IMG/VR virus record: IMGVR_UViG_3300045988_038418 | Coordinates: 1 to 41,274 of that record | Reading direction: 5' to 3' (one strand) | Length of the DNA: 41,274 bases | Source: a virus | Part shown: positions 20,440 through 33,914 of the stretch, in pieces | Layout of the letters: each line of letters begins with the position of its first letter | How positions within the stretch are numbered: position 1 is the stretch's first letter | The notes under the pieces: generated by a model | Told to the model about the DNA's origin: nothing | The model's input: the letters and a program-made list of their open reading frames with translations, nothing else | The model's database searches: none | Made by a program: the position numbers and the translations under genes

Positions 20440-21216
20440 ATGATTAGAGGAAAAGTGACCGGACAGGTTCTGCAGCTTGCGAAAAATACGACCGTAAGCG
20501 ACAGCAAAAACTATATATCAGCCAGATTCGTCTTTTCCCTCGACTGGCTTGGTCTGACTAAAACGGTGCATTTCAAGAATGGCGAGAATCAGGCGGATGT
20601 AACCCTTGTGGATGACGGCATCACACAGGACAGAGGAATTGACCTGAGCGCCGGAACATGGGACGTGTGGCTGCATGGGGCAGCTTATAACGAGTCTACA
20701 GGAGAGCTTGAAGAGAGAATTACAACTACTAGCGCAAAGCTTGTAGTCCTTCCGTATCAGACCACAACCGGGGAACCTTTTAGAGGCAATAATGCCAGTG
20801 CGGTTGAAATTGAAGTCGGGAAAGCGGTTGTTGCCGCATCAAAAGCAGAAACGGCCAGAGACGCTGCGGAAGCATCGGCAAATTCCGCTGCCTTTTCCGA
20901 AAAAAATGCTGCATCATCGGCAGCAGAGGTGAAACGGAATAAAGAAGCGGTTGACAAGAATTTTAAATTAACAGAAACAGCGAAGAAAGAAGCGAAGGCC
21001 TGGGCGATCGGTGACAGCGACATTCCTGAGACGGTCGATAACAATGCAAGATTCTATTCGGAAGCAGCGAAGCAGGTTGCAACAAAAAACGGATTCTGTC
21101 ACCTGAGCATTGACGATTCAGGTCATTTGATTCTTGACCGTACGGAAAACATCAAAGACGAATTGAACTTCGAATTAACAGATAGCGGTCATTTGGAGGT
21201 TATATTTAATGATTAG
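20440..21216 (+). CDS. Tail fibre protein (Ala-rich helical C-terminal segment)
   Basis: The segment AETARDAAEASANSAAFSEKNAASSAAEVKRNKEAV is typical of fibre shafts. The gene overlaps the next fibre gene. Confidence 0.5.
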   Translation: MIRGKVTGQVLQLAKNTTVSDSKNYISARFVFSLDWLGLTKTVHFKNGENQADVTLVDDGITQDRGIDLSAGTWDVWLHGAAYNESTGELEERITTTSAKLVVLPYQTTTGEPFRGNNASAVEIEVGKAVVAASKAETARDAAEASANSAAFSEKNAASSAAEVKRNKEAVDKNFKLTETAKKEAKAWAIGDSDIPETVDNNARFYSEAAKQVATKNGFCHLSIDDSGHLILDRTENIKDELNFELTDSGHLEVIFND

Positions 21217-22981
21217 AACAGATTTAGGCATCGCAACGGCCTATGCTGAGGCCGTGAGCAAGGGATACACCGGAACAAGAGACGAATTCGGACAGATGTT
21301 TGCTGATTTCGGAAAAGCAGCTGAGAAGGTCACAGAGGACAAAAAGGCAGTCGAACAGATGAAGTTGTCTGTTGAAGAGACAAAGAGTTCTGTTGATACA
21401 ACGGCGGCTGAATTCGGACAGAATGTCGCAGATAAGAAAGCAGAGGCTAAAGCAGCCATCACAGAGCATGCAAATACGGAAAAAGAATCAGCTACAGCGG
21501 CTATATCTGAAGCGAAAGACGATGCAACAGGCGCGATCACGGAAGCGCAGACATCTGCGACGGATGCAATTGCTTCGGCAAAGGATTCAGCTACTGCTGA
21601 AATCGCAAAAAAGGGGACTGATACGCTTGCGACGATTCCGGAAGATTACACAACGTTAACTGGACAGGTTGGTTCACTAAAGGAATATATAGGTGATTTT
21701 GATAATGAAAAAATCAACAAGAATTTTTTGTACGAAATTGATGGGTCGAATGAACAGTTATCTAGCACGAAAATGATGGATGTGTCCGGAAATGGAGAAA
21801 TCGCAAAAGTAGTTGCTGATTCTGTTTACCGGGATAATCTTATCCTAATTCCTGATATTAAAGAAAATACAGTCAACGGATTGACGTATAGTGTTGTTGA
21901 TGGAATTGTTTCTGTATCAGGAACCGCAAGTACATATACACTAATCAATCTTGGTGTTAATCTTGCGATGATGGACAGAATTAACGGAATCGGATATAAA
22001 ATATTTATATTTGACGGCACTATGCCAACCGGAGTGTCTATTATTCTTGGTATAGCTATAAATGGAAATACAAAAACGATAACCAGTACAGTTCAAGAAA
22101 ACGCATCTACAGGATTAGTTACATACAATAACAAAAATATTGGTGTATCTGTTAACAATGGCACAACAGTGAATTTTAAGTTCGGTGTCGTTATAATTCC
22201 CGTGAATATAATACCTTCTAAATTCTTAAATGGATACAAGTACATTGGTAAATCACTTGACGAGTTGCTATGCTTATCAAATATGTGGGCATTTGGTAAT
22301 GAGGTATCAAAAATATTTTTGAACACAACATATCGATTTAAAAAGAACAATTTATACGGAAAAAGTCTTTTTGTTGCAGGAGATAGCGTTGCATATGGTT
22401 ATGGAAGTAATAGCACATCTTTCGGAGAAATTATCGCTAAAAAGAATAATATGCGTCTTACAAAAGTAGCAATAAGCGGAACTACATTTGCAAAACGTGA
22501 CGGGTTAACAAATAGTATTTTGGAACAAGTAGAGTCTATTGACAAAGAATACGATTATATCATTGTAGAGGGCGGGTTTAACGATTATTTTCAAATGAAC
22601 AATGGAGTATCTATTGGAACAATGCCTAAAAACATGAACTCTAGCAGAGACGATAAAACAACATACGGCGCATTAGATAGTATTTGTTTATGGCTTAAAC
22701 AGAATTATCCTGCAAGTAAGATTTTGTTTGTTGTTCCCCATAAAATAATGACAATAACTGGTGTAATTGACAGTGAGTTTTATCCATATTTGCAAGCAAT
22801 TAGAAATGTATGTGAAAAGTATAGTATTCGTTATGCAGACATTGCCTTAAAAGGTGGATGTACTCCTTTTTATCAATCGTTTAGAGATAAATACTTCGGT
22901 AGTGACGGAATACATCCTAATTTAGACGGATACAAGACTTTTTATGTGCCAGTAATCGAATCTGAAATGGAAATGATGTAA
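21209..22981 (+). CDS. Tail fibre/spike with a C-terminal SGNH (GDSL) hydrolase domain
   Basis: The N-terminal segment is an Ala/Thr-rich helical shaft. All four SGNH blocks are present: FVAGDSVAYG, ISGTT, GGFNDY and DGIHPN. The part from about 21660 onward is visibly more AT-rich. Confidence 0.75.
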   Translation: MIRTDLGIATAYAEAVSKGYTGTRDEFGQMFADFGKAAEKVTEDKKAVEQMKLSVEETKSSVDTTAAEFGQNVADKKAEAKAAITEHANTEKESATAAISEAKDDATGAITEAQTSATDAIASAKDSATAEIAKKGTDTLATIPEDYTTLTGQVGSLKEYIGDFDNEKINKNFLYEIDGSNEQLSSTKMMDVSGNGEIAKVVADSVYRDNLILIPDIKENTVNGLTYSVVDGIVSVSGTASTYTLINLGVNLAMMDRINGIGYKIFIFDGTMPTGVSIILGIAINGNTKTITSTVQENASTGLVTYNNKNIGVSVNNGTTVNFKFGVVIIPVNIIPSKFLNGYKYIGKSLDELLCLSNMWAFGNEVSKIFLNTTYRFKKNNLYGKSLFVAGDSVAYGYGSNSTSFGEIIAKKNNMRLTKVAISGTTFAKRDGLTNSILEQVESIDKEYDYIIVEGGFNDYFQMNNGVSIGTMPKNMNSSRDDKTTYGALDSICLWLKQNYPASKILFVVPHKIMTITGVIDSEFYPYLQAIRNVCEKYSIRYADIALKGGCTPFYQSFRDKYFGSDGIHPNLDGYKTFYVPVIESEMEMM

Positions 22982-23379: not shown

Positions 23380-23437
23380 TCCAGTTTATCTCCCTTGCCG
23401 GGGTCAAGGCAAATACGTACAATTGAGGTATACAGAT

Positions 23438-23704
23438 ATGACCGATGCAATGATAACCGGAGTTGTAGCTATAACCGTGTGCATGATTAACAATGCATTT
23501 CAACAGTATCGTGTAAAATTACATCATGACGAGACAACGACGATGATAACTTACAAGATTGACGAGCTCACTAAGCGAGTTGACAAACATAACAGCATCA
23601 TCGAACGCACATATGCATTAGAGAAGCAGATGGCTACAATGGATGAAAAAGTCCGTGTAGCCAACCACCGAATAGCGGATTTAGAGGAAAAGGAGCGTGT
23701 ATAG
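23438..23704 (+). CDS. Membrane-anchored coiled-coil lysis accessory protein (XhlA/BhlA-like)
   Basis: It has an N-terminal transmembrane segment (ITGVVAITVCMINNAF) followed by a coiled coil. It lies directly upstream of the holin. ATG 23438 has a GAGGT RBS. Confidence 0.45.
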   Translation: MTDAMITGVVAITVCMINNAFQQYRVKLHHDETTTMITYKIDELTKRVDKHNSIIERTYALEKQMATMDEKVRVANHRIADLEEKERV

Positions 23705-23705
23705 A

Positions 23706-23933
23706 ATGTTTAAAAATTGCGTATTAAAACCCGATGTAAATACAGTTAAGTGGTTCAAAGCGGCCGGGGTAAGAGCCATCAAGACGATGGCTCAGACAGC
23801 TGTGGCACTGATCGGGACTAACGCGTTCATCACTGCTGTAGATTGGAAGATGATCATCTCTGGTGCTGTGATGGCCGGATTGGTGAGCATCCTGACAAGT
23901 GTTGCAGGCATTCCGGAAGTAGAAGCAGAATAG
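23706..23933 (+). CDS. Holin
   Basis: It is 75 aa with two hydrophobic segments. The pattern RAIKTMAQTAVALIG...SILTSVAGIPE resembles the r1t/LL-H-type holin pattern. It lies directly upstream of the endolysin. Confidence 0.65.
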   Translation: MFKNCVLKPDVNTVKWFKAAGVRAIKTMAQTAVALIGTNAFITAVDWKMIISGAVMAGLVSILTSVAGIPEVEAE

Positions 23934-23950: not shown

Positions 23951-24718
23951 ATGAGTAAGACGTTTAAACAGAAAGAATGGGGAACACTGCATGGAATTTC
24001 CATGGCTGCTTCTGGCTGTGGCCCTTGCAGTATTGCATCCATCGTTGCCAACCTGGTTAAGGACATTACCCCAAAAAAGGTTGCCGAGTGGCTCTACGCA
24101 AACGGCGATTTCTTTTCATCCGGTACGACCCGTGCCGGCGTAACTGCTGCTTTTGAACATTACGGCTTCGACGTCGTTGGATATTACAAACCAGAACATT
24201 CCGGCGGCACAATCTGGAAAAACGCAATGGCTAAGATGAAGTCATTAAAAGGTGATTGGTGGGCCGTGTTCCTGACGGTCGGAAAGGTCAACGGGGCAAA
24301 GGACAATTTTTGGACATCCGGCGGTCATTACTTAGCCATCACGGACTACAAGGACGGAAAGCTGTATGTTCGTGATTCTGGTGCAAGAAACAACACCGGA
24401 TATTTCAGCCCTGAAAAGCTCAGATACGATACCAACGTCATCTGGATTGTTCAGAAGAAATCAGGCAAAAAGGCTTATACAGGCGAGTTCCCGACTCTTC
24501 CGTCAAAAGGCTATATCGGTGAAGGTGACACTGGATCAGAAGTTAAGAAGGTGCAGCTGTTTCTGAAGTGGTATGGCACATACAAGGACAGAGTAGACGG
24601 AAAATGCCTTGGAAGGACTGTAGCAGCTATTAAGGCGTTTCAGATTGCAGAGGGAGAGACAACTGATCTGAAATTCGGACCATCCTGTTTGAGAAAAGCA
24701 AAAACTGTCAGAAAGTAA
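23951..24718 (+). CDS. Endolysin: papain-fold cysteine peptidase (C39-like) plus a C-terminal PG_binding_1 domain
   Basis: The candidate catalytic Cys is in ASGCGPCS and the candidate His in SGGHYLAI. The C-terminal segment GDTGSEVKKVQLFLKWYG...DGKCLGRTVAAIKAFQ is the PG_binding_1 pattern. Confidence 0.75.
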   Translation: MSKTFKQKEWGTLHGISMAASGCGPCSIASIVANLVKDITPKKVAEWLYANGDFFSSGTTRAGVTAAFEHYGFDVVGYYKPEHSGGTIWKNAMAKMKSLKGDWWAVFLTVGKVNGAKDNFWTSGGHYLAITDYKDGKLYVRDSGARNNTGYFSPEKLRYDTNVIWIVQKKSGKKAYTGEFPTLPSKGYIGEGDTGSEVKKVQLFLKWYGTYKDRVDGKCLGRTVAAIKAFQIAEGETTDLKFGPSCLRKAKTVRK

Positions 24719-24726
24719 ACAAGAAT

Positions 24727-24879
24727 ATGAAAAAAGCAAAGGAAATGCTGCTAGAAGATGCATTATCTTCCGCTATTCATTCAGAGAAACGCAATATTCA
24801 TTTAAAAAAGGCTCTTACTCTTTCAGCCTTTTTCAACATCGTGTGTATTGTATATTGTGCATTAAAAAAGCATGGATAG
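24727..24879 (+). CDS. 50-aa tail-anchored membrane peptide, too short for the ORF track
   Basis: The translation is MKKAKEMLLEDALSSAIHSEKRNIHLKKALTLSAFFNIVCIVYCALKKHG*. It overlaps the next gene by 8 nt. The RBS is weak. Confidence 0.3.
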   Translation: MKKAKEMLLEDALSSAIHSEKRNIHLKKALTLSAFFNIVCIVYCALKKHG

Positions 24880-25132
24880 AGGCTTAATCAAATACTTTTG
24901 GGATTGCGGGGATAGCCAGATCATCGAATTTGCGATAATTCGGGCACGGCTGAACAGAAGAGAGAAAGAGGCTGTCAGCCTTCTTCTGGACGAATGTTAT
25001 ACACAGGAAAAGGCGGCAGAAGTGATGGACATTTCAGTTCGTAATGTTCAGAAGATCTGGTACAGTGCTGCGGACAAGCTCCTGTCGATTCCTTGGGTTG
25101 TAGCCTATGCAAAAGAGCTGAAAAATAAATAA
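24872..25132 (+). CDS. Small transcriptional regulator resembling sigma-70 region 4
   Basis: The segment LNRREKEAVSLLLDECYTQEKAAEVMDISVRNVQKIWYSAADKL is a region-4/LuxR-type HTH pattern. It is followed by a strong terminator. Confidence 0.5.
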   Translation: MDRGLIKYFWDCGDSQIIEFAIIRARLNRREKEAVSLLLDECYTQEKAAEVMDISVRNVQKIWYSAADKLLSIPWVVAYAKELKNK

Positions 25133-25140
25133 TATGCGTA

Positions 25141-25181
25141 AATATAGCGTATCTGATTCGTTGGATACGCTATATTTTTTT
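25141..25181 (+). terminator. Rho-independent terminator
   Basis: A 13-bp stem (AATATAGCGTATC / GATACGCTATATT) with a 10-nt loop, followed by a T7 run. Confidence 0.8.
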
Positions 25182-25212
25182 GCTTAAATATACAGTAGAA
25201 AGGGGGATGCCG

Positions 25213-25599
25213 ATGTATAAGCGATACAACCCCAATCCGATAGCAGCGAGAGTCGGCGACTGTACAGTTCGGGCAATCAGTAAGGCGACAGATCAGAGTT
25301 GGCAATACACTTATGTGCAGCTGTGCTTGTACGGTCTGTTAATGTCCGATATGCCGTCATCCAACAGTGTGTGGGGCGCATATCTGTTAGATATAGGATT
25401 TTCAAGGAATATGGTTCCAGACGTATACGGTAAGATATATACCGTCTCAGATTTCGCCAGAGAGCATCAGAAAGGCATCTATATATTAGCCTTATCCGGG
25501 CATGTGGTGGCACTAGTCGACGGTGATTGGTATGACACATGGGATTCCGGGCAAGAAATCCCGCTGTATTATTGGCACAAAAAGGAGGAGAGCGCATGA
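25213..25599 (+). CDS. Hypothetical protein with a Cys/His/Asp arrangement (possible papain-like fold)
   Basis: The motifs are YNPNPIAARVGDCTVRAI, then LSGHVVALVDGDWYDTWDSG. ATG 25213 lies 6 nt after a GGGGGA RBS. Confidence 0.5.
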   Translation: MYKRYNPNPIAARVGDCTVRAISKATDQSWQYTYVQLCLYGLLMSDMPSSNSVWGAYLLDIGFSRNMVPDVYGKIYTVSDFAREHQKGIYILALSGHVVALVDGDWYDTWDSGQEIPLYYWHKKEESA

Positions 25600-26060
25600 A
25601 TTATCCATACGGAAACATGAACATGAATAGTTATTCACAGTATCCGAATTTTGGTGTCGGATATAATCCACCTGTTCCTGATCAGCTGAGTCAGCTTCGG
25701 ATGCAGAACGCATTCAACCAGATGAATCAACCGGTTCAGCAGCAGCCGACCAATCCAGATGAACGGATCTGGGTACAGGGAGAGGGAGCAGCGCAGGCTT
25801 ATCTAGTAGCACCGAACGGATTTGTTCGATTGTGGGACAGCACGGCCCCGGTATTCTACGAAAAGAGAGCCGATCAGACGGGAAAACCGTATATGGAAGT
25901 GTTCGAATACACCCGAAAAGGTGCACAGACTCCGAATCCAGAGCCTAAACGGATGGATGCGGATAATGTTATAGAAAAACAGCTTAAGTCATTAGAAGAG
26001 CGTGTAGGCGTTCTTGAAAAGAGAGGAGCGATGACAAATGATGCAGCAGATTCCGAATAA
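25596..26060 (+). CDS. Hypothetical protein with a Q/N/P-rich low-complexity N-terminus
   Basis: ATGA overlap with the upstream gene. The first ~60 aa are Q/N/P-rich (MNYPYGNMNMNSYSQYPNFGVGYNPPVPDQ...). A globular segment and a short coiled coil follow. Confidence 0.55.
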   Translation: MNYPYGNMNMNSYSQYPNFGVGYNPPVPDQLSQLRMQNAFNQMNQPVQQQPTNPDERIWVQGEGAAQAYLVAPNGFVRLWDSTAPVFYEKRADQTGKPYMEVFEYTRKGAQTPNPEPKRMDADNVIEKQLKSLEERVGVLEKRGAMTNDAADSE

Positions 26061-26235
26061 TCCAATGCAGATGATACAGCAGTTCAATCAGTTCAAAAAC
26101 TCTTTCACGGGAGACCCGAAGCAGGCGGTTATGAACCTTTTGCAAAGTGGTCAAATGAATCAGGATCAGTTGAATCAGCTACAGTCGATGGCAAAGCAGT
26201 TCCAGTCCATCATGGGTGGAATGGAACATAAATGA
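26038..26235 (+). CDS. Small Q-rich hypothetical protein
   Basis: A GAGAGGAG RBS lies 9 nt upstream. It is 65 aa and 17 residues are Gln. Confidence 0.5.
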   Translation: MMQQIPNNPMQMIQQFNQFKNSFTGDPKQAVMNLLQSGQMNQDQLNQLQSMAKQFQSIMGGMEHK

Positions 26236-26282
26236 AAAAATCATGGCCAATGGTTTAATAGATAAAAAAGGAGTGTGTTTGA

Positions 26283-27038
26283 ATGAGCTTAACAACAAGT
26301 GAAATGACCCCTGCCGACTTTGCGGCGGTGACAGGCAATAACAACAATGGAACATGGGGCGACGGCGGTGCGTGGTGGATTATTATCCTTTTCCTCTTCG
26401 TTTTTTGCGGATGGGGCGGCAACGGCTTCGGAGGCAACAGAAACGGTGGCGGAGTAGTAGACGGATACGTCCTGACATCCGACTTCGCGAACATTGAAAG
26501 AAAAATTGACAACGTCAACAATGGCTTGTGCGACGGATTCTACGGACAGGCTCAGCTTGTGAACGGTGTGCAGCAGAATTTGAGCAACGGTTTCATGTCT
26601 GCGGAGATTTCCAGAGCCAACCAGCAGGCCGGACTGATGCAGCAGCTTAATGCTATGCAGATGCAGCAGGCTAATTGCTGCTGTGAGACAAGAGAAGCTA
26701 TTCAGGGCGTGAACTACAACCTTGCACAGCAGTCTTGCGAGACACGACAGAGTGTCAATACAGCCGCAAGAGATATCATCGACAATCAGAACGCCAACGC
26801 AAGAGCCATTCTCGATGCTATGACCGCACAGAGAATCGAAGCGAAGGATGCGAAGATTGCAGAGCAGAGCCAGCAGCTTTTTGCAGCACAGCTTGCAGCA
26901 AGTCAGGCGGCTCAGAATGATACGCTTAAAGCGTACATGACAGGCCAGTTTGCTTACTACAATCCAAGACCTGTTCCGGCATTCCCAGTTCCGGCACCTT
27001 ATCAGTACGGCAACTGTGGGAATGGCTGCGGATGCTAA
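26283..27038 (+). CDS. Membrane protein with a Gly-rich juxtamembrane segment, a Q-rich helical region and Cys clusters
   Basis: The transmembrane segment is WWIIILFLFVFCGW, followed by GGNGFGGNRNGGG. An internal NCCCETR...SCETR pair is present. The C-terminus is YGNCGNGCGC. No family was recognised. Confidence 0.6.
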   Translation: MSLTTSEMTPADFAAVTGNNNNGTWGDGGAWWIIILFLFVFCGWGGNGFGGNRNGGGVVDGYVLTSDFANIERKIDNVNNGLCDGFYGQAQLVNGVQQNLSNGFMSAEISRANQQAGLMQQLNAMQMQQANCCCETREAIQGVNYNLAQQSCETRQSVNTAARDIIDNQNANARAILDAMTAQRIEAKDAKIAEQSQQLFAAQLAASQAAQNDTLKAYMTGQFAYYNPRPVPAFPVPAPYQYGNCGNGCGC

Positions 27039-27106
27039 TTGAATAATGACATAAGGCAGCTTGTCGCATGACGACATGGTCAGCACTCCTCCGCTGATAC
27101 TGCTTA

Positions 27107-27138
27107 AGTGGCGGGGTGTTGCCCTGCCACTTTTTATT
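27107..27138 (+). terminator. Rho-independent terminator
   Basis: A 10-bp stem (AGTGGCGGGG / CCCTGCCACT, one G.U pair) with a 5-nt loop, followed by TTTTTATTT. Confidence 0.7.
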
Positions 27139-27155
27139 TAAAGGAGCGTGAAAAA

Positions 27156-27578
27156 ATGGCAGAATATACAAATTCTAATACAGTTCTAGTCGCCGCTGGC
27201 CAGAACATTCCTCTTACAGAGACAGCGGTCAAAGGTGGATGCGGCATTATTCACAGAGAGGGTGCCGGCATCGTAACACTAAGAGGCACGACGAATCAGT
27301 GCAAGGCCCGCTATAGAGTCAGCTTTGGCGGCAATATCGCTATACCTACAGGCGGCACAGTTGAAGCTATCTCCGTGGCTCTGGCGATTGACGGGGAGCC
27401 TCTTAATTCAGCAACTGCGATCGTCACACCGGCTGCGGTAGAAAACTTTTTCAACGTCTATGTTGCGTCTTATATCGACGTACCTAGAGGGTGCTGCGTG
27501 ACGGTTGCATTAGAGAATGTATCCACAGAGGCTATTAATATCAGCAACGCGAACATGATCGTTGAGCGAGTTGCATAA
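27156..27578 (+). CDS. Beta-rich protein resembling the BclA C-terminal (TNF/C1q-like) exosporium domain
   Basis: It is 140 aa with alternating hydrophobic beta-strand patterns. The C-terminus NANMIVERVA resembles the B. anthracis BclA end ...SASIIIEKVA as recalled from memory. There is no collagen-like region. Confidence 0.45.
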   Translation: MAEYTNSNTVLVAAGQNIPLTETAVKGGCGIIHREGAGIVTLRGTTNQCKARYRVSFGGNIAIPTGGTVEAISVALAIDGEPLNSATAIVTPAAVENFFNVYVASYIDVPRGCCVTVALENVSTEAINISNANMIVERVA

Positions 27579-27591
27579 TGGAGGTGTGAAC

Positions 27592-28008
27592 ATGAACAAA
27601 AATACATTGTATGACCTGAAAGAAATGCTCTGCAAAGAGCTTGATGAGATTGCTAAGAAAGGCGAAATGAGTGCCGGAGACCTTGAGACAGTGCATAAGC
27701 TTACTGATACCGTCAAGAACATTGAAAAAATCATGTATATCGACGACAACGGTTATTCGATGGACGGCGATTGGAGATCATCCGGCACATATGCCCGTGA
27801 TGGAATGCGGATGGACGACCGAGGTATGAGTTATGCGAACAGAGGACGTCACTATGTTCGAGGCCATTATTCCAGGGGAGACGGACGAGAAATGAGTAGA
27901 TGTCGTGACTATCTTTCTGATCAGATCAGAGATATGATGGACCGTGACGATCTCTCTCAGACGGATAGAGCGTCGCTTAAAAGGGCACTGGAAGAATTAC
28001 AGGGATAG
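27592..28008 (+). CDS. Hypothetical protein with a helical N-terminus and an R/G/D/Y-rich middle
   Basis: ATG 27592 follows a GGAGGTG RBS. It is 138 aa with no family recognised. Confidence 0.55.
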   Translation: MNKNTLYDLKEMLCKELDEIAKKGEMSAGDLETVHKLTDTVKNIEKIMYIDDNGYSMDGDWRSSGTYARDGMRMDDRGMSYANRGRHYVRGHYSRGDGREMSRCRDYLSDQIRDMMDRDDLSQTDRASLKRALEELQG

Positions 28009-28011
28009 GCG

Positions 28012-28362
28012 GTGAAAGGCGTGGATTTGAACGAGATTAATGCTGAGATTGCGAAGCTTGAAGCGGGCGGCACAAATTATGCAGTCTGCGAAAAACTGGC
28101 GTGCCTCTATACGGTCCGTGACGGGCTTCAGAATGTAAGAGAGCCGGAACGGACAAGGAATGAATACAGCTATGCTTCAAATCCACGCCAGATAGTCGCA
28201 GACGAGCCTCAGAGCGAATTCTCTCAGGCTGCTTACAGTGTGCCTGTAGATGCGCTTATATCCGTCATGGATGAGCACATGGAAGCGATACGGGCTATAT
28301 ACCCGAAAGAATACAGCGCCATTGTTGAGCGCCTGAAAAACGAAAGAAGGGCGGGAGATTAG
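28012..28362 (+). CDS. Hypothetical protein
   Basis: GTG 28012 lies 4 nt after the upstream stop. TTG 28027 is an alternative start. The gene ends inside a terminator hairpin. Confidence 0.5.
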   Translation: MKGVDLNEINAEIAKLEAGGTNYAVCEKLACLYTVRDGLQNVREPERTRNEYSYASNPRQIVADEPQSEFSQAAYSVPVDALISVMDEHMEAIRAIYPKEYSAIVERLKNERRAGD

Positions 28363-28376
28363 TCCCGTCCTTTTTA
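28349..28376 (+). terminator. Rho-independent terminator at a convergent gene junction
   Basis: The stem GGGCGGGA / TCCCGTCC has one G.U pair and is followed by TTTTTA. It closes the + strand cassette opposite the end of the - strand operon. Confidence 0.65.
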
Positions 28377-28382
28377 TAGTTG

Positions 28383-28745
28383 TTAAGCTCTAACGGCTTC
28401 CCTCATAAGCTTCCAGACACCCTGAGTCATTACTTCTATAAGTTCGCCGTTTGATTCCTCAAGCTGGTTATATCCCTCTTCGAAAGAATCTAAAAGACTG
28501 TCCACGAAATTCTGATCGGAGTAACTGAGAGTTTTATAATCCACCAGTTCCCCGTCGTGGTAAATTTCGATCACTTTTGAAGGGTCAGAATAGTATTTTT
28601 CGCCCTTTGAGGCATCCCCGTTCCACGTCTCTCTTTCTATGAGCTTGCTGTAATCAATCGGTTCTTCCGGTTCCAATTCTTCGGACATTCTTTTTAATGC
28701 CCCAATCATTTTGTCATCTATTTGCATCTTTTCACCATTAGCCAT
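28383..28745 (-). CDS. Acidic hypothetical protein (121 aa), last gene of leftward operon 2
   Basis: The start is the internal Met of the 154-aa track ORF. It lies 1 nt after the upstream TAA, which suggests translational coupling. Confidence 0.55.
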   Translation of the reverse strand: MANGEKMQIDDKMIGALKRMSEELEPEEPIDYSKLIERETWNGDASKGEKYYSDPSKVIEIYHDGELVDYKTLSYSDQNFVDSLLDSFEEGYNQLEESNGELIEVMTQGVWKLMREAVRA

Positions 28746-29201: not shown

Positions 29202-29241
29202 AACTGTCTTTATTATATCATAGTGGACACCACTAGTCAAG
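29202..29241 (-). promoter_or_regulatory. Consensus sigma-70-type promoter (copy 2) with a palindromic operator in the spacer
   Basis: On the - strand: TTGACT (29240-29235), a 17-nt spacer, TATAAT (29217-29212). The spacer contains the palindrome TAGTGG-n3-CCACTA (29221-29235). The 40-bp block matches 30380-30419 at 39 of 40 positions. Confidence 0.7.
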
Positions 29242-29424
29242 CGCTTTTTTGTCCTTTTCTATGATTATTTTACCATCCTCTAAGGTCATCAAAACGCCTC
29301 TGTCTTCTTCAGTGATCCCAAGTGCCCTTACCATGGCAACTGGGATGGAAACGCGGTAGTTTTTTGTGTCTTTGCCGGATGTCCCTCCGGCTTTGTTTAT
29401 CATTATATTTCTATTTACTTTCAT
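29233..29424 (-). CDS. AbrB/MazE/SpoVT-type DNA-binding protein (63 aa)
   Basis: The segment YRVSIPVAMVRALGITEEDRGVLMTLEDGKIIIEK is the swapped-hairpin AbrB-like pattern. ATG 29424 has a GAGGG RBS. Its last codons overlap the -35 and operator of the downstream promoter. Confidence 0.65.
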   Translation of the reverse strand: MKVNRNIMINKAGGTSGKDTKNYRVSIPVAMVRALGITEEDRGVLMTLEDGKIIIEKDKKALD

Positions 29425-29950
29425 CTTTTTTGCCCTCATTATATTTTTTTCTCGCATTGTTCTCTTCGCTCCAAGATAGCAGTATCCAACCTTTGTATTG
29501 AGAATAGCCACGTTTTCTCTTTCCAAGAAAAGTTCTTTTTATATCTATAATTCCTCCATAAAACCTGATAGGTGATGACGGCAAGATCTCCTCATTATCT
29601 CTTGCCCATTTTTTTAAATTGTCGATTTCATACACAACTCCTTCAGGCGATCGTATCACCCAGCTTTTTGCTTGGGTATTTGTCTCAAATCGTCCACTAT
29701 TCGGACTTTTAGAAGCTGCTTCGTGAGCCAAAATGAGCCTTTTGGCTGACGATCTCGTTCTTCCGATTTTGGATCTTTCCAAATGCTCGCAAGCCTTACT
29801 ACATGTTTTCTTCTCGGATGACGGGCTTGCGTAAAATTTTTTCCCACATACTACGCAAGTTTTCATATTTTTTATATATGAAACCCTGCATTCCTGGGAA
29901 CAGTAGTATTTATTTCTACCGGTATCTTTTCCGCAGTTTAAACATTTCAT
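29411..29950 (-). CDS. Zinc-ribbon protein (two CxxC...C..C units) with a NUMOD-like C-terminal segment
   Basis: The zinc-ribbon units are CLNCGK...YCSQEC and CVVCGKKF...CSKAC. KSWVIRSPEGVVYEIDNLKKWARDN resembles DNA-binding modules associated with homing endonucleases. Confidence 0.5.
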   Translation of the reverse strand: MKCLNCGKDTGRNKYYCSQECRVSYIKNMKTCVVCGKKFYASPSSEKKTCSKACEHLERSKIGRTRSSAKRLILAHEAASKSPNSGRFETNTQAKSWVIRSPEGVVYEIDNLKKWARDNEEILPSSPIRFYGGIIDIKRTFLGKRKRGYSQYKGWILLSWSEENNARKKYNEGKKDESK

Positions 29951-30502: not shown

Positions 30503-32008
30503 TCAAATTAAAAGCTCTATATCGAGCGCGTATGATGGTTTTTCTTTTCTGCCTAAAAATATATAATCTATCCTTTTCACAGCGTTTTTGAGAAGTATAT
30601 TTTTCTCTTCCGCTGAAAGATCATCGTTCCTGAGTCCATCAACCGCGGCTCGTAATCTAATAACTTGATCATTGTAATTTATACGCTTCGGCCGGTTCTT
30701 CTTTAATGCGTCTATCTTTTGACTCAGATCATTCATCTCCGCCCTGATAGAGCTGTTACGCTCTAAAAAAACATCTTCCGAATAGATTCCCTTTTCAAGG
30801 AGGTCATATTGCTTCTTTTCTTGCTCTGCCATCGATTGTAGTTCATCTTCCATCCTCTGTATCTGCTTTGTGTAAATGCTGTCATCGTCCGAATCACTGC
30901 TGTTTGTTCTTGCTTCTAATTCTATAGAAATCGACTCAAGCGAATTGGAGACGTTCTTTATCGCTTCGTCCAGGTAAGCAGACTTTCCTCCACACCCTTT
31001 TGTCCGGCATTCTATACGGTCCTTCGTGTTTCCCTTGTAAGGGTGCCGCGTCATTGATCGGCCACATTCAGAACAGTATACCAGTCCAGCTAGCGGGTTT
31101 TTGATCGCGTGATCTATGTGTGCACGAGGATCGTTTCTCAGCATTTCCTGTACACCGTCATATACATATTCTTTTACAAGGCCCTTGTGTCTCCCTTTTA
31201 CTAATACAACGTCTTCGGGGTCGGCCGTGCTTTTCTTTCTTACAAGATGCCCGTCTTCGTATGAAAATTCGGTTTTTGTATACGCAAAACGGACGTATCC
31301 TTTGTAATGAGGATTCTGAAGAATGAAACTCACAGAAGAACGCTCCCACTTTTTGCCTCGTGGCGGCTTGACGTTTATGCTGTTTAGATAGAACGCAATT
31401 CGTCCCAGACTTTTGTGTTCAAAAAATTTCATGTCAAAAATTTTCGTTACGACCCAACCGAACTCACCGACTTCCAGTGTCGGGCCGATTTCGTCATTCG
31501 CCTTTTCATAACCGTATGGCGGTATGCTGCCGATAAAATTCCCCTTCTGAGCCGACAGGACTCGACCTCGCCAAAGTATTTCTTTCGTATACTCAAGATA
31601 GTCATTCCCTCGCATTAGTTCCTGTTCAAAAAATTTACGCTGCATTTTGTTCGACAGGTCGTATTCCATCTGAAGGGTTATAATGCGTGTGTTCGAGTAC
31701 CTGAAAGCGTTTTCGACCTTTCCACAGTCTTCCAGATCACCTCTTGTGAGTCGCTGCGGTTCGACAGTAAGAACAGCCTTAACATTGTCAGATTCGATGA
31801 TCCGCAGCAGCTCTATCATCTTCGGACGTTCAATGATAGTTTCGCCGGATACGACTTCGCGAAGAATGTGATCTTCGCGGATGCGATAGCCGAGCTTTTT
31901 CAGTGCCAGTTCCTGAAGCATAGTTTCGTGCCTGGCAAGTACATCCTCTACAGATTCAAGAGGACTGTCAGCCCGACTTTTTCTTAGATATATATAATAT
32001 TCGTACAT
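30503..32008 (-). CDS. int: Large serine recombinase (integrase)
   Basis: The N-terminal resolvase domain (YIYLRKSRADS with the catalytic Ser context), a recombinase domain, the zinc ribbon CSECGRSM...C...C and a C-terminal coiled coil are present. Length is 501 aa. Confidence 0.9.
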   Translation of the reverse strand: MYEYYIYLRKSRADSPLESVEDVLARHETMLQELALKKLGYRIREDHILREVVSGETIIERPKMIELLRIIESDNVKAVLTVEPQRLTRGDLEDCGKVENAFRYSNTRIITLQMEYDLSNKMQRKFFEQELMRGNDYLEYTKEILWRGRVLSAQKGNFIGSIPPYGYEKANDEIGPTLEVGEFGWVVTKIFDMKFFEHKSLGRIAFYLNSINVKPPRGKKWERSSVSFILQNPHYKGYVRFAYTKTEFSYEDGHLVRKKSTADPEDVVLVKGRHKGLVKEYVYDGVQEMLRNDPRAHIDHAIKNPLAGLVYCSECGRSMTRHPYKGNTKDRIECRTKGCGGKSAYLDEAIKNVSNSLESISIELEARTNSSDSDDDSIYTKQIQRMEDELQSMAEQEKKQYDLLEKGIYSEDVFLERNSSIRAEMNDLSQKIDALKKNRPKRINYNDQVIRLRAAVDGLRNDDLSAEEKNILLKNAVKRIDYIFLGRKEKPSYALDIELLI

Positions 32009-33359: not shown

Positions 33360-33914
33360 TTACTCTTCGATTGTGATTAACTGTGTATCTTTTGCACCGT
33401 CGAAAGAAATCCAGTCAGATACTTCAATGTCTACATCGCTTGTATCCTGCAACTCGAACGGTTCGCAAACGTCAATAGATCCTCCTGGCTGAATATCCTT
33501 CATATAATTTTCATATTCAGGAATTTCATAGTCTATATAAGCCAATTCGTTTTCTACACCGTTCTGGAAGCACTGGATCTGTGCTGAAGCCATAGCGCTT
33601 GTGTTTTCGTCGCCGTTATTCGTGAATGTGTAATAATACAGAAGACATGGATTTCCGTCCATATCCTTTTTGATCTCATGCTTCGAATATGTGATGACAT
33701 ATTTGTCTGTTTCAAAATTGATAGTGCCGTCATCGGCTGCTTCTGTCTCAGGAGCTTCTGTGGTAGCCTCCTTTGTTGTTACAGGAGCTTCTGTTGCTGC
33801 CTCAGTTGCGGCTGGTGCCTGCGTTTCTTTTGGTGCATCTGATGAGCTGCCGCACGCCATGATAGACATAGACATAGCGGCAACCATCATTGCTGCAGTG
33901 ATTTTCTTTTTCAT
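33360..33914 (-). CDS. Lipoprotein (DUF5067/DUF4352-like Ig-fold domain) in the lysogeny module
   Basis: It has a signal peptide with the lipobox SIMA-C, an A/T/E-rich linker, and then KDMDGNPCLLYYYTFTNNGDENTS...FQNGVE...IQPGGS, typical of DUF5067-type lipoproteins. Confidence 0.65.
   Translation of the reverse strand: MKKKITAAMMVAAMSMSIMACGSSSDAPKETQAPAATEAATEAPVTTKEATTEAPETEAADDGTINFETDKYVITYSKHEIKKDMDGNPCLLYYYTFTNNGDENTSAMASAQIQCFQNGVENELAYIDYEIPEYENYMKDIQPGGSIDVCEPFELQDTSDVDIEVSDWISFDGAKDTQLITIEE

Follow-up and report, generated by a model that had tools for sequence, protein, structure and literature searches.

Organization of the nine-gene region

Nine plus-strand ORFs (P1–P9, 24727–28362) lie between the endolysin and the convergent leftward genes of the 41,274-nt viral window analysed here (positions 1 to 41,274 of IMG/VR record IMGVR_UViG_3300045988_038418), which raises the question of whether they form a functional unit and what that unit would do. 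An initial annotation, made from the letters alone, had tentatively described them as a terminator-delimited module modifying the host cell or spore surface or, more loosely, as the source of an uncharacterised assembled structure. All nine ORFs and three terminator-like hairpins with T-runs were recovered (Table 1; the second is listed as leader hairpin H3). Its impression that no described system has such a composition also held, as P1–P9 matched none in Pfam, NCBIfam, PADLOC, PDB sequences or Rfam. Transmembrane-like segments were found by composition analysis of the nine ORFs in P1 and P6 only, and signal peptides were absent from all cassette proteins. Of P3–P9, every member except P9 matched a PHROG family of unknown function; P1 and P9 matched none, and P2 matched a PHROG sigma factor.

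Table 1. Coordinates of features in and around the nine-gene region of the window.
Feature	Position	Strand	Description
Endolysin	23951–24718		Peptidase_C39_2 + PG_binding_1
P1	24727–24879	+	50 aa; C-terminal hydrophobic anchor (residues 28–46); stop overlaps P2 start
P2	24872–25132	+	86 aa; sigma-70 region-4-like helix-turn-helix protein
Terminator 1	25140–25177	+	17-bp hairpin + T-run
Extended −10-like element	25181–25189	+	TGCTTAAAT; tentative, read from sequence; directly 3′ of terminator 1 T-run
P3	25213–25599	+	128 aa; minimal papain-like cysteine peptidase candidate (Cys17, His97, Asp108)
P4	25596–26060	+	154 aa; Tyr/Gln/Asn/Pro-rich N-terminus, conserved core, helical C-terminus
P5	26038–26235	+	65 aa; small Gln-rich protein
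P6	26283–27038	+	251 aa; predicted single-pass membrane protein
Leader of P7	27055–27158	+	conserved three-hairpin RNA, ~100 nt
Leader hairpin H1	27061–27076
Leader hairpin H2	27080–27097
Leader hairpin H3	27106–27132		followed by U-run to 27139
P7	27156–27578	+	140 aa; free-standing TNF/C1q-like beta jelly roll (predicted)
P8	27592–28008	+	138 aa; N-terminal helix, low-complexity middle, helical C-terminus
P9	28012–28362	+	116 aa; least conserved cassette member (23–47% identity)
Terminator 3	28344–28375	.	bidirectional hairpin, common to cassette and convergent leftward genes

The cassette is widespread in phages of gut Clostridia

P3–P9 (25213–28362) form a seven-gene cassette that was strictly collinear in approximately 60 of 80 related loci, and collinearity extended over most of the ~80 independent loci at amino-acid identities of 27–75%. 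Co-occurrence outside this phage, on which the initial annotation had made its module depend, is wide. It is carried by siphoviruses whose hosts are Clostridia of the gut and rumen, chiefly Oscillospirales and in some cases Lachnospiraceae. The lysis genes ahead of the cassette vary, with at least nine types of endolysin and several of holin, which indicates that it travels as a unit; it was always co-stranded with late genes and accompanied different tail modules. It usually has the lysis genes on one side and the integrase or prophage end on the other. Other settings were also observed: Butyrivibrio virus Ceridwen, isolated as lytic and apparently virulent, carries the complete cassette and no integrase; in Dulem virus 35 the cassette is inside the head-morphogenesis module, between MuF-like and scaffold/capsid genes, and is still preceded by XhlA-like, transmembrane and P2-like genes and a terminator; and in two MAGs (L014 and L026) P6, the RNA leader, P7 and P8 stand alone between host metabolic genes. 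In addition, two independent HNH homing-endonuclease insertions were found within the cassette.

A sigma-region-4-like gene and a terminator precede the cassette

P2 had been likened to sigma region 4, a resemblance borne out by matches to Sigma70_r4 (E = 9.5e-5) and Sigma70_r4_2 (E = 1.1e-4), both below Pfam cut-offs, to the PHROG sigma factor family (E = 6e-5) and to TIGR02937 (E = 1.5e-4), as well as by a recurring P2-like family. Judged from its sequence, P2 holds region 4 only, which excludes a complete sigma factor. By iterated HMM, 42 of 57 loci had a P2-like ORF (66–90 aa) within the 400 nt preceding P3; the set behind this family was small, and HTH proteins of a generic kind may be among its members. 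Three upstream ORFs matched Sigma70_r4_2, the best at E = 1.3e-9. The initial annotation had counted both P1 and P2 in the cassette: both are present and neither is conserved at the level of sequence identity, yet the P2-like family recurs upstream of P3. P1, which matched no family in Pfam or PHROG, may be a membrane partner of P2, and a small transmembrane ORF is located directly 5′ of the P2-like gene in both Ceridwen (L079:6463-6657) and Dulem virus 35 (L082:4687-4968).

Terminator 1 closes the late/lysis transcription unit. In 38 of 39 loci the P2-like gene lies within the late operon, 5′ of a conserved terminator, and a hairpin (−14 to −30 kcal/mol) with a T-run separates it from the next gene, the hairpin sequence itself being unconserved across loci. 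A diverged sigma70-region-4-like gene with a strong terminator ahead of P3–P9 is the arrangement in most loci. TGnTAtAAT-like elements comparable to the tentative extended −10-like element of this window were present in 11 of 35 loci versus 1.3% of random 32-mers, a comparison that used a post hoc motif and a control covering more than intergenic DNA. At the other end, 26 of 55 loci have a hairpin resembling a terminator after the last cassette gene detected.

The cassette encodes a peptidase candidate, a cysteine-rich membrane protein and a TNF/C1q-like protein

The papain-like fold suspected for P3 (phrog_3754, E = 3e-25) agrees with the topology of its AF2 model (pLDDT 92.8), in which the Cys begins a helix and His and Asp are on neighbouring strands, and with the conservation of these residues: C17, H97 and D108 were invariant in 36 homologues and reached at least 90% conservation across 56 locus copies. 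Foldseek gave weak matches to Josephin-type deubiquitinases only (E = 0.13, TM 0.45–0.47). The P3 family also occurs without the rest of the cassette in Bacillus, Geobacillus and Lak phages, and in other phages it is found in early, host-takeover regions adjoining an Ocr-like gene; since it works alone in unrelated phages, P3 may have its target outside the cassette. In a variant form (L047, L059 and L069), the cassette has no P3 but a terminal small HExxH metallopeptidase-like gene, which is consistent with a proteolytic step belonging to the system.

P6 (phrog_16490, E = 1e-43) accounts for at least 7,994 public clusters (90% identity), all unnamed and without a Pfam match. From its N-terminus it comprises an acidic Gly/Asn-rich tail, one W-flanked hydrophobic helix (residues 28–46, between Gly/Asn-rich flanks) and a Gly/Asn-rich linker. 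A Gln/Ala-rich region containing an invariant CCC comes next, then a Pro-rich tail, and the protein ends in GCGC; its motifs are CCCETR, SCETR and the C-terminal GNCGNGCGC. C132–134, C249 and C251 were at least 90% conserved, and the Pro-rich tail (P239) preceding C249/C251 is conserved as well. Flank charges (0.66 K/R and 2.8 D/E on the N side, 1.26 K/R on the C side) give a weak indication of an N-out/C-in topology.

P7 (phrog_20016, E = 2e-63) is the most conserved cassette gene. Public data contain at least 7,925 clusters of it at 90% identity, all without a name, and 711 representatives at 50% identity. Among the 150 representatives listed, lengths range from 72 to 196 aa (full-length ~135–157 aa), leaving no space for a fused domain. 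The all-beta AF2 model (pLDDT 86, pTM 0.79) supports the earlier comparison with the BclA C-terminal domain: Foldseek matched it in the PDB to the F-BclA C-domain, ExsF/ExsFA/BxpB, BclA and TNF ligands (E = 6e-7 to 1e-5, TM 0.67–0.75), with BclA, ExsFA/BxpB and F-BclA as the best matches. Free-standing phage relatives, some bearing the name BclA protein, were found in BFVD, and the BFVD and PDB matches also include tail fibres, cyanophages A4 and A-1(L), and collagen-like proteins. As modelled, the likeness to BclA/ExsF is at the fold level only, without sequence homology, and collagen repeats, a BclA_C Pfam match and the exosporium leader peptide (TIGR03720) were all absent from the cassette proteins. 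ExsF, a free-standing trimer, has clefts at its trimer interfaces in which Pro-rich leader peptides are bound (PMC12357932), and P7 is likewise free-standing in every representative among those listed. Its cysteines C49 and CC113–114 are conserved.

The remaining members are of low complexity or poorly conserved. In P4 (phrog_21718, E = 9e-22), Q, N and P make up 45% of the first 60 residues, followed by a conserved core of ~45 aa (IWVxGE..YLVAPN..LWDS..Y.KSAD); a 48-sequence profile of P4 found no match among PDB sequences. P5 (phrog_22984, E = 1.4e-16), collinear in 46 loci, contains 23% Gln, slightly below the 26% first given. P8 (phrog_28802, E = 5e-8), also without a match in PDB sequences, has a middle part rich in Arg/Gly/Asp/Ser/Tyr with an HYVRGHYSR motif. 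P9 was collinear downstream of P8 in 33 loci and shows conserved KLA.LY.IRD and VMDELM motifs, with no family match in Pfam, PHROG or NCBIfam.

A conserved three-hairpin RNA precedes P7

The second terminator of the initial annotation does exist as a hairpin (H3), but it belongs to a larger RNA element that is itself conserved. Covariance model R1 matched the leader of this window with 49.8 bits (E = 2e-10), and was found as a single copy directly 5′ of P7, or of a small ORF inserted before P7, in approximately 60 of 76 sources. In the alignment, 97.2% of cells were paired and compensatory changes occurred at all 23 pairs, with 281 double-change cells versus 75 ± 7 in shuffles; the MFE was −37.6 kcal/mol (z = −3.8). 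The leader, which had no match in Rfam, is a structured RNA not described before. Directly 3′ of it come the ribosome-binding site and start codon of P7, and the space between the U-run and the ribosome-binding site is too short for a promoter.

Candidate functions of the operon

The reading that we tentatively favour, as possible rather than probable, is a separately regulated late operon building a membrane-tethered, cysteine-cross-linkable protein assembly with a P7 trimer as docking hub. The putatively DNA-binding P2, possibly with P1 as its partner, would be the product of the last gene in the late/lysis operon, and beyond the strong terminator P3–P9 would be transcribed separately, perhaps helped by P2 and, in some relatives, driven by an extended −10 promoter immediately past the terminator. 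Because a membrane segment is present only in P6 and signal peptides are absent, the cassette products would meet in the cytoplasm, where they may self-assemble into a membrane-tethered structure in the manner of the exosporium nap. By analogy with ExsF/BxpB, the P7 trimer would hold a proline-rich peptide of a partner, the likeliest being the tail of the P6 stalk, which is Pro-rich and ends in Cys; P3 would trim a partner, and the low-complexity P4, P5 and P8 would form a matrix. Disulfide or metal bridges through CCC and GCGC of P6 and C49 and CC113–114 of P7 could fix the assembly after the cell opens. The leader, with its last hairpin as an intrinsic terminator, would set the dosage or timing of P7–P9, and the structure would be produced as the lytic cycle ends and set free by lysis. 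Gene content, synteny, abundance, both folds, the conserved residues, the terminators and the RNA structure are shown here, whereas timing, docking, proteolysis, cross-linking and the biological purpose are inferred. This reading is favoured by collinearity retained down to 27–50% identity, by the P2-like gene in the late operon, by the leader covariation, and by the lytic-cycle association seen in Ceridwen and at the head-operon site of Dulem virus 35. Against it, the integrase or prophage-end site and the terminator-promoter-terminator layout are moron-like and fit expression in a lysogen equally; the host-gene-flanked copies in two MAGs could mean a host-beneficial function; the P7 fold likeness comes without sequence homology, TIGR03720 leader or collagen repeats; the P6 topology call is weak; and the P3 family is also solitary elsewhere.

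The main idea of the initial annotation, a lysogenic-conversion moron expressed from the prophage and altering the host cell or, in sporulating hosts, a coat- or exosporium-like spore surface, appears rather unlikely. It draws on the same usual site, on insulation by the strong upstream terminator in 38 of 39 loci, on the sigma-A-type extended −10-like element in about a third of loci, and on the retention of P6-RNA-P7-P8 among host metabolic genes. The P7 fold is that of exosporium proteins, and spore-coat and exosporium proteins (B. cereus-group exosporium, B. subtilis coat assembly) likewise have no signal peptides and are Cys-, Gln- or Tyr-rich. The hosts are mostly Clostridia, and one neighbouring host gene encodes GerA. 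However, Ceridwen, with its complete cassette, lacks an integrase and has been observed only as a lytic phage, and its host B. fibrisolvens is not known to sporulate, the Ceridwen paper being silent on spores; the named hosts include Subdoligranulum and Oscillibacter, genera likewise not known to sporulate. The cassette of Dulem virus 35 within the head operon, 5′ of the scaffold and capsid genes, the putative regulator gene inside the late operon, and the absence of an exosporium leader, collagen repeat or BclA_C signature further weaken the spore-surface part of that annotation, of which the folds, the sigma-region-4 likeness and the co-occurrence stand.

It is unlikely that P7 trimers with P6, P4 or P8 are virion accessories, that is, head or tail decorations or fibres adding adhesion or stability. 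TNF/C1q-like knobs are common at phage and giant-virus fibre tips, as the BFVD and PDB matches illustrate, and the constant late-gene strand, the MuF-like to scaffold/capsid position in Dulem virus 35 and the two HNH insertions would suit such a role. The tail modules that accompany the cassette nevertheless differ, as do the endolysins, of which there are at least nine types, and the capsid type of this window is common to ~100 Streptococcus, Staphylococcus and Enterococcus phages without P7. P7 has no N-terminal attachment domain and no fibre fusion among the representatives listed, and a membrane anchor (P6) and terminator insulation are unusual among virion proteins.

A membrane-associated defence, superinfection-exclusion or lysis-accessory system working from the inner face of the membrane seems improbable. 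The site is typical for prophage defence and exclusion genes, P6 is membrane-anchored, linkage to holin and XhlA-like genes persists even in Dulem virus 35, and the P3 family adjoins an Ocr-like gene in early host-takeover regions elsewhere. PADLOC, however, matched 0 of 9 proteins, nuclease, NTPase and sensor domains were absent in Pfam and NCBIfam, seven mostly low-complexity or structural-looking proteins are atypical of defence, and the window already holds a complete XhlA-like/holin/endolysin set and a DUF5067 protein beside the repressor. A chance cluster of unrelated morons without joint function, as solitary P3 and poorly conserved P1 and P9 might suggest, is scarcely credible given the strict gene order in ~60 loci down to 27–50% identity behind many lysis modules and the conserved intergenic RNA that ties P6 to P7.

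The looser alternative of the initial annotation, an uncharacterised assembled structure, is our best, though tentative, reading, and the region is best explained as a self-contained accessory operon. The operon is real, uncharacterised and very widespread among phages of gut Clostridia, and its products may assemble at the membrane late in infection.

The cassette lies behind the lysis genes of a temperate siphovirus

The window represents a complete temperate siphovirus genome of ~41 kb. As described in the initial annotation, nine ORFs (P1–P9) were found on the plus strand between the endolysin and the convergent leftward genes, and the terminators claimed there were all recovered as hairpins with T-runs. 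The Q/N/P-rich N-terminus of P4 was confirmed (45% Q+N+P), as were the single W-flanked hydrophobic helix, Gly/Asn-rich flanks, CCCETR and SCETR motifs and GNCGNGCGC end of P6; the Gln content of P5 proved to be 23% rather than the 26% claimed. Membrane-like segments were present in P1 and P6 only, and none of the other proteins of the region carries a signal-like N-terminal segment.

Positions of the features discussed, in window coordinates
Feature	Position	Remark
Large terminase	5098-6441	
SPP1-type portal and MuF-like protein		
Capsid gene	10074-10946	
Tail genes, including GDSL-esterase fibre	21209-22981	position of the fibre
XhlA-like gene	23423-23704	
r1t-type holin	23697-23933	
Endolysin	23951-24718	Peptidase_C39_2-like domain and PG_binding_1
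P1	24727-24879	
P2	24872-25132	
Terminator 1	25140-25177	hairpin with T-run, between P2 and P3
P3	25213-25599	
P4	25596-26060	
P5	26038-26235	
P6	26283-27038	
RNA leader	27055-27158	before P7
Second terminator	27106-27132	hairpin with T-run
P7	27156-27578	
P8	27592-28008	
P9	28012-28362	
Third terminator	28344-28375	hairpin with T-run
Leftward genes	29233-29526 (-), 29411-29950 (-), 33360-33914 (-)	including MazE/AbrB-like, treble-clef Zn-ribbon and DUF5067 proteins
Serine recombinase	30503-32008	opposite strand, as are the HTH repressors

Elsewhere in the window, the tail-fibre-like protein (590 aa) carries at its C-terminus a GDSL/SGNH esterase domain, possibly a receptor-deacetylating enzyme, and the DUF5067 protein adjoins the repressor and is a plausible candidate for superinfection exclusion. 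The endolysin contains the pattern GCGPC...GGHYLAI...D, in which Cys, His and Asp follow the same order as in P3 (GDC...GHVVA...D).

P3–P9 form a conserved gene unit

By scanning one genome per species, 73 loci were obtained, nearly all from MAGs or isolates of Oscillospirales and other Clostridia, with Acutalibacter, Pseudoflavonifractor, Oscillibacter, Lawsonibacter, Subdoligranulum, Ruminococcus and Butyricicoccus among the genera; a few ~40-kb contigs binned to Bacteroidota or Collinsella are probably mis-binned phage. Tblastn of P1–P9 against all loci showed that the order P3-P4-P5-P6-P7-P8-(P9) is kept in ~60 of them (identities 44–75% for P7, 43–69% for P3, 27–72% for P6 and 23–47% for P9), and the synteny that had been put forward as a check on the cassette (P3–P9) thus holds outside the window phage. 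The unit is preceded by holins and by endolysins that represent at least nine catalytic types; on its downstream side lie tyrosine integrases (13), serine recombinases (3), HTH repressors or host genes. Contigs with a P7 relative show the same gene run (125, 149, 75, 252, 140, 133 and 110 aa), here following a GH25 lysin and another kind of tail module, and in Dulem virus 33 the run follows a PGRP-type lysin and precedes a tyrosine integrase. The cassette is a conserved unit rather than a chance cluster.

At 90% identity, the P7 and P6 families comprise at least 7,925 and at least 7,994 clusters, respectively, which come from public gut and rumen data and have neither a named member nor a Pfam family nor a role suggested for them. 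Clustering of P7 at 50% left 711 representatives; the 150 of these that were listed span 72–196 aa, with full-length copies of ~135–157 aa and many truncated gene calls, and all are free-standing and too short for a fused domain, so that they provide no fusion (“Rosetta stone”) evidence for P7. PHROG profiles, all of unknown function, match P3, P4, P5, P6, P7 and P8, and the source annotations of the relatives read “hypothetical protein” throughout. Searches of all nine proteins against Pfam, NCBIfam and PADLOC returned nothing besides weak sigma region-4 matches of P2, with no PADLOC defence component matching P1–P9 better than E 0.01, and PDB sequences gave no useful match to single sequences of P3, P6 and P7 or to a P7 profile, and no match to the P4 and P8 profiles.

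The capsid type of the window is common to Dulem virus 33, MT835551 and Ceridwen. A role of P7 as the partner of one capsid type was rejected, since the same capsid family is found in ~100 Streptococcus, Staphylococcus and Enterococcus phages without P7.

A sigma-like gene and a terminator precede P3

P1 and P2 show no conservation at the identity level, and tblastn found P2 in one locus only (L011). P2, its L011 copy and an ORF of Ceridwen served as seeds for an HMM that was iterated on ORFs upstream of P3, by which a sigma-region-4-like ORF of 66–90 aa was identified at most 400 nt from P3 in 42 of 57 loci, a small set in which the model could have drifted to generic HTH proteins. Three of the ORFs upstream of P3 match Sigma70_r4_2 on their own (best E 1.3e-9; Sigma70_r4, E 2.4e-10). 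P2 itself, a protein of 86 aa, matches region 4 models through residues 25–70 (E ~1e-4, below curated cut-offs), and no sigma region 2 (−10 recognition, core binding) was found in it. The resemblance to sigma region 4 noted earlier is therefore retained as a weak match, but P2 is no complete sigma factor because it contains region 4 only.

Between the P2-like gene and the next gene, a strong hairpin (−14 to −30 kcal/mol) with a T-run was present in 38 of 39 loci, its sequence not being conserved among them. The regulator and this first terminator belong to the cassette unit. Right after the T-run, an extended −10-like TGnTAtAAT, a motif chosen post hoc, was found in 11 of 35 loci versus 1.3% of random 32-mers, and the window has only TGCTTAAAT at that site (4/6 match). 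In the window, Ceridwen and Dulem virus 35, a tiny membrane ORF is located immediately before the sigma-like gene; in the window this ORF is P1, the stop of which overlaps the start of P2. Many loci (L001, L008, L027, L031, L048, L079:6878-7084 and others) contain an extra ORF of ~60–70 aa after terminator 1 and before P3, often with a Y.RLIAAG-like motif, which is absent from the window.

A structured RNA separates P6 from P7

The P6–P7 spacer is 115–140 nt long in most loci, the remaining gaps in the cassette being 0–30 nt, and its nucleotide sequence is conserved even in loci whose proteins share only 50–70% identity. From 5′ to 3′ it comprises a hairpin of variable sequence (H1), a conserved linker AAUG(U/G)UC and a second hairpin (H2), UCGGC...GCCGA, with G-C to A-U swaps; next come a GAUAcU spacer and a third hairpin (H3), GCGGCGGGG...CCCCGCCGC, with a U-run, and the ribosome-binding site GAAAGGA and the P7 start follow immediately. 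H2 and H3 were recovered with compensatory changes by RNAalifold, and H1, which plain MAFFT alignment left out of register, was placed by a covariance model built from ten sequences. Exactly one copy was found by this model in ~60 of 76 sources, including Dulem virus 35, immediately before P7 or before a small ORF inserted in front of it; for the window copy, the model score was 49.8 bits (E 2e-10) and the folding energy −37.6 kcal/mol (z −3.8). In the alignment of 64 matches, 97.2% of cells are paired, 23/23 pairs are changed on both sides, and double-change cells number 281, compared with 75 ± 7 in shuffles and at most 60 in slid controls; this alignment was fitted to the covariance model and hence favours structure, but the margin is nevertheless large. 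For the H3 terminator hairpin, compensatory changes occur in 10/10 pairs. A permissive E-value scan of 24600–28500 with Rfam 15 (4,227 families) returned nothing on the plus strand at 27039–27155.

The second terminator of the initial annotation is thus a conserved terminator-like hairpin that forms part of a larger three-hairpin structured RNA. Because the stretch from the U-run to the ribosome-binding site is too short to hold a promoter, either P7–P9 are read through H3 or the RNA serves as a leader or processing site. We regard the RNA as a candidate for a new cis-regulatory leader or attenuator that would act on P7–P9. A mutually exclusive pairing, in which the loop and 3′ arm of H2 would bind the 5′ arm of H3 as an antiterminator, is possible: 84% of its cells are paired versus 80.6% in shuffles, and it has 21 double changes versus 7.4, a degree of covariation that is no more than suggestive. 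Two further readings were rejected: a leader peptide from the conserved AUG between H1 and H2, because the H2 loop varies by non-multiples of three, which breaks the frame, and the ORF differs in frame and length; and an extra closing helix (P0) around H1 and H2, present in the window MFE fold and by eye unconserved elsewhere.

The leader is missing where P6 and P7 abut (Ceridwen, L033, L043, L047, L059 and L069). Five loci (L007, L022, L032, L038 and L060) have an additional ORF of ~65–75 aa (e.g. MATCKELKEKFIDYLMDVDLD...) that starts at the ribosome-binding site of the leader, with P7 coming ~200 nt further on, and seven (L010, L025, L027, L032, L045, L048 and L077) have a fourth short hairpin (e.g. 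CCGGGTCGATTTCGACCCC) between the H3 U-run and the P7 ribosome-binding site. Weak second matches to the RNA model (27.6 bits) lie on the opposite strand and away from P7 at L075:6113-6220 (-) and L070:11135-11242 (-).

P7 is predicted to adopt the fold of exosporium proteins

The AlphaFold2 model of P7, built from a 33-sequence alignment, is all-beta (pLDDT 86, pTM 0.79) and corresponds to a compact beta jelly-roll sandwich of ~130–150 residues. Its top Foldseek matches in the PDB were the C-terminal head of F-BclA (9h38), ExsF and ExsFA/BxpB (9h3d, 7r1m, 8d02) and BclA (1wck, 2z5w), at E 6e-7 to 1e-5, TM 0.67–0.75 and a Foldseek probability of 1.0, with the TNF ligands EDA and 4-1BBL interleaved among these exosporium proteins. 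Among predicted viral structures, the best matches were free-standing proteins of 130–145 aa from uncultured phages, some annotated “BclA protein”, followed by the C1q-like tips of collagen-like proteins and tail fibres. The BclA-C-like nature proposed for P7 was borne out at the fold level only: neither the single P7 sequence nor a 66-sequence profile found BclA or ExsF among PDB sequences, and Pfam BclA_C (PF18573) gave no match at E ≤ 1. On its predicted structure, P7 would work like ExsF/BclA-C at the level of the fold, and it may be distantly related to them.

P3 has a conserved Cys-His-Asp triad, and P6 a conserved Cys-rich architecture

Residues C17, H97 and D108 of P3 are invariant in 36 homologues. 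In the P3 model (pLDDT 92.8), C17 starts a helix (17–26), H97 starts a strand (97–102) and D108 ends a strand (105–108), and this predicted placing of a Cys-helix with His and Asp on adjacent strands is the papain-like (clan CA) arrangement. The best Foldseek matches, Josephin-type BpJOS and Josephin-2, were non-significant (E 0.13, probability 0.63–0.69, TM 0.45–0.47), and further weak neighbours were herpesvirus and Burkholderia deubiquitinases, all neighbours being papain-like; P3 is smaller than these Josephin/papain-like proteins, with which it shares the order of Cys-helix and His/Asp strands, at only ~125 aa. No Pfam or NCBIfam model matched P3. The papain-like fold suggested earlier therefore agrees with the topology and the conserved triad, the match to any named family being non-significant. 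A Tgl-like transglutaminase acting on the Gln-rich partners was dropped as speculation, since neither Tgl nor NlpC/P60 was among the Foldseek matches.

Members of the P3 family are also encountered by themselves: in Tsamsa-like Bacillus phages, where the gene is annotated as a putative peptidase and adjoins an Ocr-like gene, in Geobacillus phage GBK2 (L080), where it precedes RecE/RecT, and in Lak phages. Such solitary members, among them those of GBK2, Bacillus phage Izhevsk (L081) and Lak phages, are located in early regions of unrelated phages, by RecE/RecT or by an Ocr-like anti-restriction gene and a Ser/Thr kinase, which suggests that the family has an independent role as well.

Conserved features of P6 comprise the hydrophobic helix, G43/G45, a GLCDGFY motif, CCC at 132–134, LAASQAAQN, a Pro-rich tail and terminal C249/C251. 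Its acidic N-tail holds 0.66 Lys/Arg per protein, compared with 1.26 in the 30 residues that follow the helix; this weakly suggests that the bulk of P6, on the C-terminal side, is cytoplasmic, alongside the signal-less products. P4, P5, P8 and P9 have short conserved cores with variable low-complexity flanks.

Variant cassettes and unusual contexts

Butyrivibrio virus Ceridwen was the only cultured carrier found, with the sigma-like gene, a terminator and P3 through P9 behind its endolysin. To our knowledge, its host B. fibrisolvens is non-sporulating. On B. fibrisolvens DSM 3071 only lytic growth was observed, no integrase is annotated, and the phage was judged probably virulent by its authors, whose paper does not mention spores (PMC7372960). 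Between P7 and P8 of Ceridwen, an HNH endonuclease (PHROG match, L079:9449-10312) is inserted, and between P5 and P6 of Dulem virus 33 a gene annotated only “endonuclease” (L001:9069-9620 (-)); these are two independent events.

In Dulem virus 35 the cassette genes lie within the head module, in the order MuF-like, Zn ribbon, P3, XhlA-like, transmembrane protein, sigma-like gene, terminator, P4, P5, P6, RNA leader, P7, P8, scaffold-like and major capsid. This position indicates that the cassette is not tied to the prophage end and that it is transcribed there with or before the capsid genes.

A variant cassette without P3 (L047, L059 and L069) has a longer P8-like protein (~200 aa) and ends in a gene for an HExxH protein of 100–130 aa (L047:7012-7401, L059:7028-7252, L069:7039-7344), which weakly matches SprT-like, M78 and DUF6782 metallopeptidases (below cut-offs) and phrog_1233, and which may be a non-orthologous replacement of the P3 peptidase. 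In two Oscillospiraceae MAGs (L014:5336-6818 and L026:5132-6832), P6-RNA-P7-P8 stands alone between host metabolic genes, flanked in L014 by a sulfatase and an aminotransferase at one end and by PNP, nucleoside hydrolase and AraC at the opposite end, and in L026 by two MFS transporters at one end and by LuxR and SBP at the opposite end. The L014 copy looks like a remnant because its P6 is N-terminally truncated; the two islands may be either remnants or a domesticated minimal unit.

Discussion

The co-inherited unit consists of a regulator, a terminator and seven genes. Their products include a protein whose predicted TNF/C1q fold comes closest to those of the exosporium, a minimal papain-like protein with conserved Cys, His and Asp, a stalk protein that is rich in Cys and crosses the membrane once, and three low-complexity proteins; the cassette is devoid of export signals and contains an internal RNA leader with a terminator. 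That a conserved eight-gene unit with its own regulator and structured RNA is dispensable ballast is unlikely. We know of no described system of this composition, and a search of the literature on prophages, exosporium and BclA in these hosts found nothing relevant. By exclusion, the cassette appears to be a phage accessory system of a new kind, although its folds are known ones.

Like its best fold match in the ExsF/BxpB-BclA system of the Bacillus cereus group (7r1m, 8d02, 9h3d, 1wck, 9h38), P7 is a free-standing jelly roll of ~140 aa, and the cassette proteins, as those of the exosporium, are without signal peptides and have Cys-rich partners among them. The free-standing ExsF trimer holds the Pro-rich leader peptides of BclA and F-Anchor in clefts between its subunits (PMC12357932); P6, for its part, ends in a conserved Pro-rich, Cys-terminated tail. 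In contrast to the exosporium nap, the cassette is phage-encoded and has no ExsY/CotY-type protein, P1–P9 gave no match to the exosporium leader TIGR03720 or to collagen, and no GXY repeats are visible in their translations. Nor does it appear to be confined to endospore- or exosporium-forming hosts, being complete in Ceridwen on B. fibrisolvens DSM 3071 and otherwise found in mixed Oscillospirales. Lacking a collagen-like partner, a leader peptide and sequence homology, and with a cultured host that is not known to sporulate, the cassette is not a member of the exosporium nap. These results and the carriage by Ceridwen weaken the initial idea of a spore-surface module, and a spore-only function was rejected on the evidence of Ceridwen.

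Spore-coat maturation employs the YabG cysteine protease, the Tgl transglutaminase with Gln-rich GerQ, Tyr-rich CotC/CotU and Cys-rich CotY/CotZ, and the cassette likewise joins a small cysteine-triad protein with Gln-, Tyr/Arg- and Cys-rich low-complexity proteins devoid of export signals. However, this likeness is one of composition, P3 has weak neighbours of Josephin type rather than Tgl or YabG, and Pfam and NCBIfam gave no sequence or profile match of the cassette to spore-coat maturation families. As for the RNA, riboswitches, T-boxes, protein-mediated attenuators and HK022 put-type RNAs share with it several hairpins and an intrinsic terminator just before the ribosome-binding site, but the P7 leader is intercistronic (P6/P7) rather than placed at an operon start.

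Our preferred, though tentative, reading is that the gene products come together in the cytoplasm to form a structure that is tethered to the membrane and put together as the exosporium is. By analogy with ExsF and its leaders, trimers of P7 would bind either the Pro-rich P6 tail with its terminal Cys or the Pro-rich P4 head; P3 would trim a partner protein; P4, P5 and P8 would form a matrix; and the conserved cysteines would lock the assembly on leaving the reducing cytoplasm. Synthesis at the end of the lytic cycle is favoured because the sigma-like gene lies at the tail of the late operon, because Ceridwen carries the cassette and because Dulem virus 35 has it in the head operon.

A somewhat unlikely alternative is that the cassette is a moron expressed in lysogens, altering the cell or spore surface. 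With morons (terminator-promoter-gene-terminator) it has in common its place between lysis genes and integrase, flanking terminators and possibly a promoter of its own, and this position, the insulation and the solitary chromosomal copies speak for such a role; yet it is eight genes long, brings its own regulator and has an RNA leader inside it, is conserved as a unit across thousands of phages, and occurs in an apparently virulent phage (Ceridwen) and inside a head operon (Dulem virus 35), both of which count against it. Decoration of the virion is a less probable role, in view of the modular distribution, the membrane anchor of P6 and the absence of fusions, and a function in defence, exclusion or as a lysis accessory is doubtful to a slightly greater degree, there being no PADLOC or enzymatic signature. 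A chance cluster of genes is hardly credible.

A more specific form of the membrane-tethered structure can be imagined as a “very late” programme, which we regard as improbable as a whole. In it, the sigma-region-4-like factor, made from the end of the late operon, would switch on a cytoplasmic, membrane-nucleated, exosporium-like matrix, in which TNF-fold trimers sit on Cys-rich stalks amid prion-like low-complexity proteins and a minimal cysteine peptidase carries out the maturation, with the dosage of P7–P9 set through a new class of attenuator RNA; at lysis, this matrix would coat or embed virions or virion-carrying cell remnants. If true, such a programme would give bacterial viruses a counterpart of occlusion or coat structures, one that aids both survival and transmission in the gut.

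With ~60 covarying examples, the RNA leader is a candidate for a new cis-regulatory motif, and because Ceridwen, a carrier of the cassette, has been isolated on a culturable host, the question of what the cassette does is directly testable. If the cassette builds a structure from exosporium-like parts in cells infected by phage, then TNF-fold docking combined with a Cys-rich, low-complexity matrix would be a general construction principle of bacteria and phages, beyond spores, and the cassette would point to an as yet undescribed step by which the temperate phages that dominate in gut Clostridia complete their life cycle or are transmitted.
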